DNA from: a virus
Virus genome (UHGV): UHGV-0200595
DNA length: 22,035 nt
Reading direction: 5' to 3' (one strand)
The notes beneath the pieces are model-generated. The model saw only the letters and a list, made by a program, of their open reading frames with translations, searched no databases and was not told the origin of the DNA. Positions within the stretch are counted from its first letter, which is position 1. Every line of letters begins with the position of its first letter. Positions 21,293 to 21,923 of this stretch are shown piece after piece. Position numbers and translations under genes: made by a program.

Positions 21293-21622
21293 TTAGTTAC
21301 CCACGGATGAATTGAGCTTATTTCTGGTAGATGTGGCAATTTTCCCAACATTTTTTAACCAAGATCTTAAGAAAGAGATCTCGTCTTTAATATCATGAAT
21401 ATCCTCACTCTTTATACGATCAAGCTTGCCCTCTAGGCACTCGATAGAACTCTCAACACTAGACAGCGACATTCTTAAATCGTCTTGATCACGCTCCATA
21501 GAGTATTTTAGCGCCCAATGTTCGTTTTCTAGGTCCTTTATTTTTTGGGTTATGGAGTTCATCTGATAGTCATGTACAAACCCGGAAATAATTAACGCAA
21601 CTAAGCATAACCATTCAAACAC
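21293..21622 (-). CDS. Moron-encoded small membrane-anchored coiled-coil protein (about 109 aa from GTG); candidate superinfection-exclusion/defence protein
   Basis: Reverse strand in an AT-rich island; AAGGAG SD 6 nt before GTG (complement of 21620-21622); N-terminal TM helix then heptad-like charged region; ATG at 21667 has no SD. Confidence 0.5.
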   Translation of the reverse strand: MFEWLCLVALIISGFVHDYQMNSITQKIKDLENEHWALKYSMERDQDDLRMSLSSVESSIECLEGKLDRIKSEDIHDIKDEISFLRSWLKNVGKIATSTRNKLNSSVGN

Positions 21623-21665
21623 ACAAATCTCCTTATTTTTCCTTACTCTACCATGAGGATATGCC

Positions 21666-21923
21666 ATGATTTACCCATCAAACTACCCACCAGTTTGCTT
21701 CTCTGGATACGAGCCTTGCAGTTTTTATGGAATTAATTACCCCATGCTCAAGAGCCTCGTTAGCATCCAAAATGGTCGAGTCTGCTATCAAGGATGCCCA
21801 CCTAACATTAGGTCCAATGTCGATATTGAACGTCTCAATGAAGCGATCAAGATCGTTATCGAGGCATTTCCCATACTCTCGCAGCCTGGCATGGTCGGCG
21901 GCTGGGGTGGAAAAGCCTCATGA
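21666..21923 (+). CDS. Hypothetical small Cys-containing protein (85 aa)
   Basis: GAGGA SD 6 nt before ATG; overlapping alternative ORF 21727..21993 makes the coding frame uncertain. Confidence 0.3.
   Translation: MIYPSNYPPVCFSGYEPCSFYGINYPMLKSLVSIQNGRVCYQGCPPNIRSNVDIERLNEAIKIVIEAFPILSQPGMVGGWGGKAS

Follow-up and report, generated by a model that had tools for sequence, protein, structure and literature searches.

An hkcB allele abutting gene 16 in a P22-like phage genome, a candidate superinfection-exclusion gene

The reverse-strand open reading frame (ORF) that abuts gene 16 in virus genome UHGV-0200595 is a real gene and a new allele of the hkcB family. Based on its position and on the predicted architecture of its product, we tentatively favor the hypothesis that HkcB is a superinfection-exclusion protein that would protect the lysogen from further P22-like phages, acting at the inner membrane; this is the best overall explanation that we can offer, held at somewhat less than even confidence. 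The family itself is already known and functionally uncharacterized, and the novelty lies in the allele. The gene was first named in coliphage HK620 in 2001 and is listed as a gene of unknown function (PMC2629481), and a search of the literature found no experimental work on any HkcB homologue. In what follows, the window is the whole 22,035-nucleotide (nt) stretch of DNA that was analyzed.

Table 1. Features of the hkcB locus in the window (positions count from the first letter of the stretch)
Feature	Position	Strand	Details
Gene 16 homologue (ejection/DNA-transfer protein)	19124..21292	+	HK620 type, 722 aa; phrog_770, 1.9e-202
Abutting convergent stops	21290..21295		gene 16 TGA 21290-21292; hkcB TAA 21293-21295; gap zero
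hkcB-like coding sequence	21293..21622	-	109 aa; GTG start, TAA stop
Most conserved block, codons 69-106	21305..21418	-	DRIKxEDIHDIxDxIxxLxxWLKNVGxIATSTRxKLNxS
Heptad-patterned charged helix (predicted coiled-coil stalk), codons 21-96	21335..21562	-	AlphaFold2 and periodicity
N-terminal hydrophobic segment, codons 2-17	21572..21619	-	probable membrane anchor; hydropathy
Shine-Dalgarno AAGGAG	21629..21634	-	6 nt upstream of GTG at 21620-21622
Candidate extended -10 element	21645..21653	-	TGGTAGAGT; TGGTATCCT in relatives; putative
85-aa ORF, 4 Cys	21666..21923	+	phrog_7758; antisense to ClpP remnant
3' remnant of ClpP-like protease gene	21678..21920	-	80 codons and stop; outside hkcB, its upstream context
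Promoter-like TTGCCC-16-TATCAT	21920..21947	-	consensus scan, 9/12 matches; spans deletion junction
Deletion junction	21921..21926		about 313 bp lost relative to L004; microhomology TTA(T/G)CA

An accessory gene beside gene 16

At the amino acid level the ORF is 68% identical to HkcB of HK620, accession AAK28903.1 (tblastn, E 1e-41, 98% coverage), and 45-47% identical to CUS-3 HkcB, epsilon34 gp14, and SEN22_15. The homology runs the full length, all of these proteins being 107-109 aa long, and phrog_5962 matches the ORF at 1.1e-46, aligned to positions 1-107 of the 109 in the profile. Its dN/dS is 0.26 in comparison with HK620 and 0.16-0.17 with the CUS-3 group, the lowest of the six frames, the other five giving 0.5-1.4, which shows that the protein is under purifying selection. 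Being short, AT-rich, GTG-started, and without a Pfam family, it might be taken for a chance ORF within an AT-rich spacer, a reading whose probability is negligible and which is refuted by 47 full-length or nearly full-length homologues across several enterobacterial genera (154 of 5426 complete Escherichia coli genomes carry one), by the dN/dS minimum, and by the conservation of the Shine-Dalgarno (SD) sequence and start. Besides E. coli, the carriers are prophages of Salmonella, Klebsiella, and Leclercia; the family is small, and all of the loci that we read are enterobacterial P22-like prophages. The homology to the named gene in HK620, CUS-3, and epsilon34 had gone unrecognized in the original prediction.

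Judged by its sequence, the window allele is a distinct subtype of the family. At a nucleotide identity of at least 85% it occurs in none of the complete E. coli genomes and in no phage record, and it is seen only on six contigs from metagenome or read assemblies. It carries the family signature, that is, a hydrophobic helix starting at residue 2-4 together with W(L/V)xNVGxIA(T)S(T)(R).

The GC content in 200-nt windows falls from 0.475-0.505 within gene 16 to 0.375-0.405 across 21300-21700, as the original prediction had proposed for the stretch beyond the gene 16 stop. The hkcB ORF itself has a GC content of 0.379 versus 0.503 for the whole window, and only 0.9% of 330-nt windows are equally low. 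The interval first proposed, 21293-21700, contains the gene, but its right end lies about 80 nt too far and takes in the leader and a candidate promoter. The proposed adjacency of the two convergent stop codons holds exactly, with a gap of zero, and a convergent position 0-4 nt off the gene 16 stop is found in the P22-like late operon of the window and 13 other loci, the junctions of this kind including those of HK620, 611R6, CUS-3, epsilon34, SEN22, prophages of E. coli, Klebsiella, and Leclercia, and the distant members P0048 and P0050. All hkcB homologues examined, including those of Klebsiella and Leclercia and two distant members, adjoin a gene 16 of the HK620 type; the gp16 of the window is 85% identical to that of HK620, and PF26808 was assigned to an identical gene 16 in loci L004 and L005.

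This adjacency is constant whereas the upstream neighbors of hkcB vary. In the window the neighbor is a deleted ClpP-like gene; elsewhere it is hkcC, P63C, a YafO-family toxin gene (directly upstream in CUS-3-type prophages), or mnt, and genes for DUF3800 and DUF805 proteins lie near hkcB in other contexts. An mnt-like gene lies upstream, with hkcB as the last codirectional gene, in CUS-3, APEC E19035, K. aerogenes, and L017. The link to gene 16 may be no more than a physical one.

The gene is not a necessary part of this genome plan. In Bas106, Huey, Dewey, Louie, and phiSG1, an HK620-type gp16 gene is followed directly by the tailspike gene, with no insert between them. The possibility that HkcB is required by HK620-type gp16 is rejected by viable phages that have this gp16 type and lack hkcB, and the gene is dispensable for the virion. 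The absence of the insert from syntenic relatives, together with its deviant base composition, supports hkcB as an AT-rich accessory ("ant moron") gene, carried on the other strand from the late operon, in agreement with the AT-rich moron originally proposed.

No terminator is predicted between the convergent stops, again as proposed, and a search of 20900-22035 for intrinsic terminator-like sites predicted none. Two weak sites on the minus strand within gene 16 are at chance level (2.2 expected). Because late transcription must traverse the region toward the tailspike gene, the missing terminator is to be expected and is no peculiarity of the locus. A search of 20800-22035 against Rfam yielded no match above the gathering score (one match, E 0.18).

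Upstream of hkcB, loci L004 and L009 carry an intact gene at the equivalent place that encodes a ClpP-like protein of 178 aa (PF00574; the intact form matches NF045542 at 3.4e-14), and the window retains a remnant identical to residues 99-178. The small Cys-containing ORF that the original prediction described as divergent to the reverse-strand gene is indeed so arranged, but it is antisense to this truncated ClpP-like gene and is probably a shadow ORF rather than a gene. An equivalent antisense ORF sits opposite the intact ClpP gene in L004, and in almost every listed E. coli record the RefSeq annotation is on the ClpP strand. The dN/dS values of the two frames (0.24 for ClpP and 0.34 for the 85-aa ORF) do not discriminate between them, since second codon positions are shared.

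Start site, expression, and protein architecture

The SD-GTG start of the original prediction agrees with the comparative evidence. TAAGGAGG is kept at the SD position in 14 loci, and an SD with a GTG or ATG start is common to 14 homologous loci. L010, CUS-3, and P0050 have an in-frame stop directly upstream and no alternative start codon between, which fixes the N-terminus. An in-frame ATG at 21665-21667, which would give a 124-aa version, is confined to the window allele, and the PHROG profile starts at residue 16 of that version, that is, at the GTG.

The candidate extended -10 element is kept at a fixed distance in HK620, 611R6, L010, epsilon34, SEN22, and ETEC1721, and the sequence further upstream diverges. 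This element was not called by our scan for consensus promoters, which found no promoter directly upstream of hkcB. The scan did find a promoter-like site across the deletion junction that could give read-through into hkcB, and such sites show no excess over chance in the region (three found versus 1.9 expected).

AlphaFold2 predicts a single continuous helix for residues 2-107 (pLDDT 84). Its hydrophobic periodicity is 3.5-3.6, and about 75 residues after the presumed anchor are heptad-patterned, both of which bear out the charged heptad-like C-terminal part of the original prediction; the window allele has 14 K/R and 18 D/E residues, and its tail is highly charged. Of the single N-terminal transmembrane helix proposed at the same time, the hydrophobic segment stands, and its role as a membrane anchor is probable rather than proven. 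The segment comprises 15-16 residues in the window allele and contains E3, and the Kyte-Doolittle mean over residues 2-17 is 1.87, a marginal value compared with the 2.0-2.9 of CUS-3-type relatives. Because there are no K/R residues before the segment and 2-4 in the 15 residues after it, the positive-inside rule predicts an N-out/C-in topology. The columns of the block at codons 69-106 are invariant or nearly so in alignments A1, A2, and A3, and its W-x-x-NVG-x-I core is retained in P0048 and P0050.

Sequence searches of Pfam, NCBIfam, PADLOC, and the PDB gave only subthreshold or generic coiled-coil matches, such as HOOK, Tup_N, SMC, Rad50, and designed coiled coils. A profile search against 1.8 billion representative sequences returned five proteins at E<=1e-10, all of them members of the HkcB family, and the remaining matches were long coiled-coil proteins. 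The individual candidates do not hold up. DpdH (PADLOC PDLC02886) matches the window allele with 21 bits (E 5.6e-5), but at E<=0.01 the match extends to just 4 of 20 family members, all of them HK620-like, and the coiled-coil models LmuB and JetC match equally often. We further reject XhlA (PF10779; 10.8 bits versus a cut-off of 34.7, E 0.58) and the FtsB/FtsL/DivIC group, for which no Pfam DivIC or FtsL match is found at E<=1 and NCBIfam FtsL reaches 14-15 bits versus cut-offs of 42-55 with the CUS-3 allele only. Mimicry of gp7, gp20, gp16, or gp26 is likewise rejected, BLASTP against the virion proteins of the window giving nothing below E=6. The Tai tail-assembly-interference systems are unrelated, HK620 being merely a target phage there (PMC11364771). 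Comparisons with SieA, HK97 gp15, PADLOC, Pfam, and NCBIfam identified no characterized protein homologous to HkcB.

Comparison with known exclusion systems

SieA of Salmonella phage P22 is an inner-membrane protein of superinfection exclusion, and the original prediction of a sieA-equivalent locus is correct as to slot and orientation. Like hkcB, sieA is an ant-moron accessory gene, the first past gene 16, and is read leftward and convergent with it, in P22 across a 22-nt gap and with its own annotated promoter. The two proteins are nevertheless unlike in sequence (BLASTP 20 bits, 13/45 identities), and no SieA-named family appears in the Pfam, PHROG, and NCBIfam match lists of HkcB. SieA, of which types A-C are distinguished, has 164 aa, several transmembrane helices, and a conserved FxRYPxEAxxFNK motif on the cytoplasmic side (PMC10883804), whereas HkcB has one hydrophobic segment, a long coiled coil, and neither RYP nor FNK in its 109 aa. 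SieA accompanies P22-type gp16 whereas HkcB accompanies HK620-type gp16. Among the phage records searched, 41 carry sieA and 8 carry hkcB with no overlap, a pattern that is confounded by phylogeny because the 41 sieA records all belong to near-identical Salmonella relatives of P22, whose gp16 type is different. Of 66 sequenced P22-like phages, 22 have sieA and about two thirds are without it (PMC10883804). The function of SieA has been demonstrated whereas that of HkcB in exclusion is a candidate role.

A second comparison is with gp15 of HK97, reportedly a moron-encoded superinfection exclusion protein (a finding attributed to Cumby et al., in 2012). Like HkcB it is a small moron product that begins with a hydrophobic helix at residue 1, carries no positive charge N-terminally, and continues in a charged helical tail that contains K/R residues. 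It has 62 aa versus 109 aa for HkcB, and hhalign gives a probability of 0.3% over 11 aligned columns. Unlike hkcB, its gene belongs to the tail-gene cluster of a siphovirus, on the late-gene strand, with its own terminator, and is not convergent with an ejection-protein gene.

The third system acts through RNA. In the P22-like prophage BTP1, the 3' part of the prophage-expressed STnc6030 is antisense to the 3' end of a gene 16 homologue. This RNA confers complete, phage-specific exclusion, and escape SNPs fall within 36 bp at the 3' end of the homologue (PMC7067206). STnc6030 is a leftward transcript at the gene 16/tailspike boundary, and an hkcB transcript that did not terminate at the stop would have the same geometry. 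STnc6030 was described as noncoding, with no ORF above 60 aa (PMC7067206), whereas hkcB is a selected protein-coding gene, and BTP1 differs further in lacking an ant moron and in having a different gp16 type.

Taken with these comparisons, the position of the gene and the predicted architecture make exclusion plausible, and HkcB is a good candidate for an exclusion protein of a second kind. We infer that HkcB inserts into the inner membrane by its short N-terminal hydrophobic helix and projects a long, homo-oligomeric coiled-coil stalk, with the conserved tip motif WLKNVGxIATSTR, into the cytoplasm. Transcription of the gene would run leftward, opposing the late operon, and would be driven by a promoter of its own or by read-through from upstream prophage-expressed genes, in several relatives the mnt operon, so that the protein would be made in the lysogen; the position downstream of mnt in relatives makes such expression likely. 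There HkcB would interfere with the conduit of gp16 and gp20 that delivers the DNA of phages with HK620-type ejection proteins, as a nonhomologous functional counterpart of P22 SieA. Among the points against exclusion, a cytoplasmic coiled coil is no obvious block to a conduit that spans the periplasm, the hydrophobic segment of the window allele is short and marginal, and the comparisons with SieA, gp15, and PADLOC models gave no homology.

Alternative functions and significance

It is possible, although we consider it unlikely, that HkcB is an abortive-infection protein or membrane-acting toxin that does no harm in the lysogen's inner membrane until infection, whereupon it would oligomerize or be released, damage the membrane, and kill the cell before any progeny form. 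Small membrane proteins that cross the bilayer once and have oligomerizing helices are a common effector type, and the accessory locus carries defense- or toxin-like cargo in some prophages (the YafO-family toxin, DUF3800, and DUF805). There is no sensor partner, however; the upstream genes vary, and hkcB is instead fixed to gene 16; one marginal hydrophobic helix with a highly charged tail is unlike a pore-former; and no PADLOC match holds across the family.

We also regard as improbable a lysogenic conversion without phage defense, in which HkcB would alter the physiology of the host envelope or of division. The layout, a transmembrane segment at the N-terminus with a leucine-zipper-like helix in a protein of about 100 aa, recalls FtsB/FtsL/DivIC, ZapG/YhcB, and PspB/PspC, and there are very weak, subthreshold matches to FtsL (E 0.013-0.036, CUS-3 allele) and PspC (E 0.03). 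These matches fall far under the curated cut-offs, amid the generic SMC and Rad50 matches, and Pfam, as noted above, offers no DivIC or FtsL match to set beside them. The tie to P22-like prophages and to gene 16 in all loci read points instead to a phage-directed role.

A part of the effect could lie in RNA, with the hkcB transcript running on antisense to the gene 16 3' end and silencing or destabilizing late mRNA of a superinfecting phage whose gene 16 is the same, as in BTP1; we consider this doubtful. The near-zero-gap convergent junction without a predicted terminator is conserved in all homologous loci, and hkcB strictly accompanies a single type of gene 16, both of which this mechanism would accommodate. 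RNA cannot be the sole mode of action, since the protein is selected and its C-terminal motif is conserved across genera, and Rho may terminate a read-through RNA that is not translated. Between the window and HK620 we saw no suppression of synonymous sites at the gene 16 3' end, such as would mark an RNA element (pS 0.68 over the last 40 codons); synonymous divergence is thus undiminished, although an antisense mechanism needs no such suppression. Between HK620 and CUS-3, a low-pS patch in the gene 16 3' end looks like recent mosaic exchange.

The protein and RNA readings could be combined in a two-in-one module tied to one type of ejection protein, a proposal that we think quite improbable as a whole. 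HkcB would represent a new class among inner-membrane exclusion factors and act from the cytoplasmic face through a stalk of about 11-13 nm (from about 75-90 helical residues). The hkcB mRNA, being unterminated, would extend further and be antisense to HK620-type gene 16 at its 3' end, in the manner of STnc6030. If true, this would explain why the stop codons have remained fused across genera.

We place no more weight on a role in the phage's own lytic cycle, either in tuning late transcription into the tailspike gene or in aiding the ejection proteins, an idea that we hold very doubtful. The gene does separate gene 16 from the tailspike gene, lying on the opposite strand, and the P22 ant moron has been suggested to affect late-transcription read-through into the tailspike gene (PMC2629481). 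Phages of the same gp16 type that lack hkcB and an ant moron are viable isolates (Bas106, Huey, Dewey, and Louie), and a role in transcription alone would not keep dN/dS at 0.16-0.26 or preserve the tip motif.

For this window the result is mainly one of annotation, a new hkcB allele beside a decayed ClpP-like moron. Should HkcB do nothing to phages, the strict fusion of its gene to gene 16 would still need explaining. HkcB is one occupant of the sieA slot in P22-like phages that lack sieA. If it excludes phages with HK620-type ejection proteins, it would represent a second, unrelated solution to the problem that SieA solves, and it would offer a handle on the assembly of the gp16/gp20 conduit, which is relevant because the ejection proteins of HK620 partly evade SieA.

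The hkcB-like gene and its product

The leftward open reading frame (ORF) that adjoins gene 16 (21293-21622) is a real gene and represents a new allele of the HkcB family, which was named in 2001. In tblastn searches of phage records it is 68% identical to HK620 hkcB, 67% to its counterpart in vB_EcoP-611R6 (611R6), 47% to CUS-3 hkcB, 46% to epsilon34 gene 14, and 45% to the SEN22 homolog. The profile phrog_5962 ("unknown function") matches it at 1e-46, and it agrees with the HkcB family in all features tested. The protein is clearly under purifying selection; for the hkcB frame, Nei–Gojobori dN/dS comes to 0.26 when compared with HK620 and to 0.16–0.17 with the CUS-3 group, versus 0.5–1.4 for the five other frames in the HK620 comparison. 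A full-text literature search for "hkcB" returned a single relevant paper, in which epsilon34 gene 14 is described as an hkcB homolog of unknown function within the "ant moron" (PMC2629481).

The sequence-level statements of the original prediction were all correct. The gene 16 stop (TGA, 21290-21292) directly adjoins TTA, the TAA stop of the reverse-strand ORF; GC content drops after gene 16, to 0.379 in the ORF versus 0.503 in the window, and is equally low in only 0.9% of 330-nt windows; and AAGGAG lies six bases upstream of the GTG start (21620-21622). An alternative in-frame ATG, present only in the window allele, occurs 15 codons further upstream. Three observations nevertheless show that the GTG is the start: the PHROG profile match begins there, the annotation of HK620 hkcB uses the equivalent GTG, and CUS-3, another hkcB locus (L010), and the distant member P0050 all have an in-frame stop shortly before it and no other start codon in the interval.

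A word-indexed profile search among 5.8 billion proteins recovered 47 family members, of which those with named sources are from E. coli, Salmonella, Klebsiella aerogenes, and Leclercia, every one "hypothetical"; when 1.8 billion cluster representatives were searched exhaustively with a profile, only five scored at E<=1e-10. By blastn, 154 of 5426 complete E. coli genomes carry a member (82 HK620-like and 72 CUS-3-like), none of which closely resembles the window allele in nucleotide sequence, and the only contigs found to encode the identical protein are six from metagenomes or read assemblies.

AlphaFold2, given a 20-sequence alignment, models a single unbroken helix over residues 2–107 (mean pLDDT 84). 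Residues 2–17 are hydrophobic, marginally so in the window allele (Kyte–Doolittle mean 1.87); CUS-3-type members carry the segment YTTVIVIAIALIVVQYQL, with means of 2.0–2.9. This segment stands at the very start, with no Lys or Arg before it and two to four within the 15 residues after it, and the positive-inside rule therefore predicts an N-out/C-in topology, which would place the stalk in the cytoplasm. Between residues 21 and 96 hydrophobic positions recur every 3–4 residues (periodicity 3.5–3.6) in a heptad-like pattern that shifts register near residues 45 and 72. Conservation is strongest in a C-terminal block, DRIKxEDIHDIxDxIxxLxxWLKNVGxIATSTRxKLNxS, whose W-x-x-NVG-x-I core is kept in the distant members P0048 and P0050. 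Searches of Pfam, NCBIfam, and PDB profiles with HkcB gave nothing beyond generic coiled-coil matches.

Linkage to gene 16 and upstream neighbors

The window corresponds to the late region of a lambdoid prophage or phage of P22-like (Lederbergvirus) type, with genes in the order Q-like antiterminator, holin, and endolysin; terminase, portal, scaffold, and coat; and homologs of gp4, gp10, gp26, gp14, gp7, gp20, and gp16. Late genes were identified by Pfam families on the identical genes of two contigs (L004 and L005), and gene 16 by phrog_770. At every locus examined (HK620, 611R6, CUS-3, epsilon34, SEN22, three E. coli chromosomes, K. aerogenes, Leclercia, and the loci of P0048 and P0050), the hkcB homolog is convergent with gene 16 and 0–4 nt from it. 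The adjacent gp16, where full length, is always of the HK620 type over essentially its whole length and 53–85% identical to the window's; that next to P0050 is 56% identical over the 283 residues available. P22 gp16 is similar to the window's only over residues 64–209, and the phiv205-1 gp16 fragment shares nothing with it. The linkage is one-way: in Bas106, Huey, Dewey, Louie, and phiSG1 the tailspike gene comes immediately after a gene for HK620-type gp16. Neither virion assembly nor infection therefore requires hkcB, which makes it an accessory gene.

HK620 and CUS-3 share a near-identical DNA patch that spans the fused stop codons and covers the final ~120 nt of gene 16 and the final ~60 nt of hkcB, with 93–97% nucleotide identity in hkcB and a gene 16 pS of 0.25 versus 0.6–0.9 elsewhere. 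The junction seems to be transferred as a small mosaic unit. Two metagenome proteins of 106–111 aa (P0009 and P0010) are chimeric relatives in which an unrelated, nonhydrophobic N-terminal part precedes the final ~45 HkcB residues (DRIKNEDIHDIKDDISFLKSWLKNVGKIATSTRDKLNPSMDD), which suggests recombination within hkcB that retained the end next to gene 16. Over its full length the window gp16 is 72% identical to that of CUS-3 and 85% to that of HK620, values that do not fit the 26% identity stated for HK620 and CUS-3 gp16 (PMC10883804).

The upstream neighbor of hkcB varies. HK620 has hkcC there (divergent, 30 nt away), 611R6 and L010 have a P63C-domain gene, CUS-3 and APEC E19035 have a gene for a YafO-family toxin, a further locus (L017) has mnt immediately adjacent, and contigs L004 and L009 have a ClpP-like gene. 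In CUS-3, APEC E19035, K. aerogenes, and L017, hkcB ends a co-directional string that starts with an mnt-like Arc-family repressor gene. The CUS-3-like and APEC prophages have a 199-aa unknown gene and the YafO-family gene on the same strand between mnt and hkcB, and these four genes look like a leftward lysogen operon. A figure legend depicts the leftward mnt/sieA side of P22 as prophage-expressed (PMC10883804). About 25 nt before the hkcB start codon, HK620, 611R6, L010, epsilon34, SEN22, and ETEC1721 share the element TGGTATCCT despite differing sequence further upstream. It reads as an extended -10 (TGnTAnnnT), but a consensus promoter scan did not flag it, so it is no more than a candidate.

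A ClpP-like remnant and other genes of the window

The divergent Cys-containing ORF of the original prediction does exist, encoding 85 aa and matching phrog_7758, yet its simplest reading is as the shadow of a now-truncated ClpP-like moron. The opposite strand encodes a sequence identical to residues 99–178 of a 178-aa ClpP-like protein (PF00574; NF045542, 3.4e-14), the intact gene for which is co-directional with hkcB in L004 and L009. Relative to L004 the window is without ~313 bp, including the ClpP start codon and first 98 codons. The antisense ORF is open opposite the intact gene as well, and in RefSeq the ClpP strand is annotated in nearly all records listed. The dN/dS values of the ClpP and antisense frames (0.24 versus 0.34) do not separate them because second codon positions are shared.

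A stretch of 261 bp at this site is 91% identical to part of a ClpP-like gene carried by phiv205-1 and by 128 of 5426 E. coli genomes. Occurring widely in the ant moron of P22-like prophages of E. coli, this gene overlaps the end of an mnt-like Arc-family gene there in a two-gene leftward unit. Its product, a stand-alone ClpP-related protease, had no match in PADLOC, and the gene itself occupies a lysogen-expressed position. Between the lysis genes and terminase, a ParB N-terminal-domain gene overlaps one for a TET-associated glycosyltransferase (TAGT, 1.2e-35); this pair and the methylase fragment upstream of it may be a DNA hypermodification module, or its remnant, in a P22-like phage.

Coordinates of features in the window and in related loci
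Feature	Location	Strand	Remark
Lowest-GC segment	window 1-470		GC 0.34 over 330 nt; left end, ahead of DUF1367 gene
N6/N4 DNA methylase	window 2154-2660	+	C-terminal fragment
HicB-like antitoxin gene	window 2723-3154	-	RHH domain; between Q-like antiterminator region and holin
ParB-domain/TAGT pair	window 5056-6775	+	
Candidate extended -10	window 21645-21653		TGGTAGAGT
85-aa ORF	window 21666-21923	+	
Truncated ClpP-like protease moron	window 21678-21926	-	3' 80 codons left
Deletion junction	window 21921-21926		TTA(T/G)CA microhomology
Intact 178-aa ClpP-like gene	L004 2873-3409; L009 92-628		directly upstream of identical hkcB
Widespread ClpP-like gene	L024 (E. coli ETEC1721) 5615-6405; L002 (phiv205-1) 2514-3298		
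YafO-family toxin gene	L025 (APEC E19035) 3559-3978; L003 (CUS-3) 3056-3475		

Possible functions of HkcB

Several features constrain the function of HkcB. It is the product of an accessory gene under purifying selection, on the strand from which prophages express their cargo in the lysogen; it has a predicted membrane anchor, a putative oligomerizing stalk, and a conserved tip; its gene lies in a P22-like prophage in every locus read, always with one type of ejection protein; and its slot is that of a proven exclusion gene. P22 sieA occupies this position and also converges on gene 16, from which 22 nt separate it; it has its own annotated promoter. Among phage records 41 have sieA, 8 have hkcB, and none has both, a non-overlap that is statistically weak because all sieA records are close P22 relatives. 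Mutations that escape SieA affect the C-terminal regions of gp16 and gp20, and the ejection proteins of HK620 are partly resistant to it (PMC10883804). The most economical hypothesis, which we put forward tentatively, is that HkcB could be the SieA counterpart carried by the HK620-type lineage. HkcB does not belong to SieA, HK97 gp15, FtsB/FtsL, XhlA, or DpdH, and it may work like SieA or gp15 without being either.

The original prediction had proposed either an exclusion or an abortive-infection determinant, and the latter, in the form of an Abi-type membrane effector, seems unlikely to us. We similarly doubt a role in host physiology, for which the resemblance is to small bitopic coiled-coil proteins. 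For an RNA-level contribution of the locus, which we regard as improbable, the P22-like prophage BTP1 offers a direct precedent: a lysogen-expressed RNA, antisense to the gene 16 homolog at its 3' end, confers complete exclusion of BTP1, and escape SNPs map to a 36-bp segment there (PMC7067206). As no terminator is predicted between hkcB and gene 16, an hkcB transcript would share this geometry. Synonymous-site constraint at the 3' end of gene 16 was looked for and none was found, and given the clear selection on the protein, RNA would be at most an added layer. We consider it very improbable that HkcB serves late expression of the phage itself. The value here lies not in the window's copy but in a sharpened, cheap-to-test hypothesis, together with the strict rule that hkcB is fused to HK620-type gene 16.
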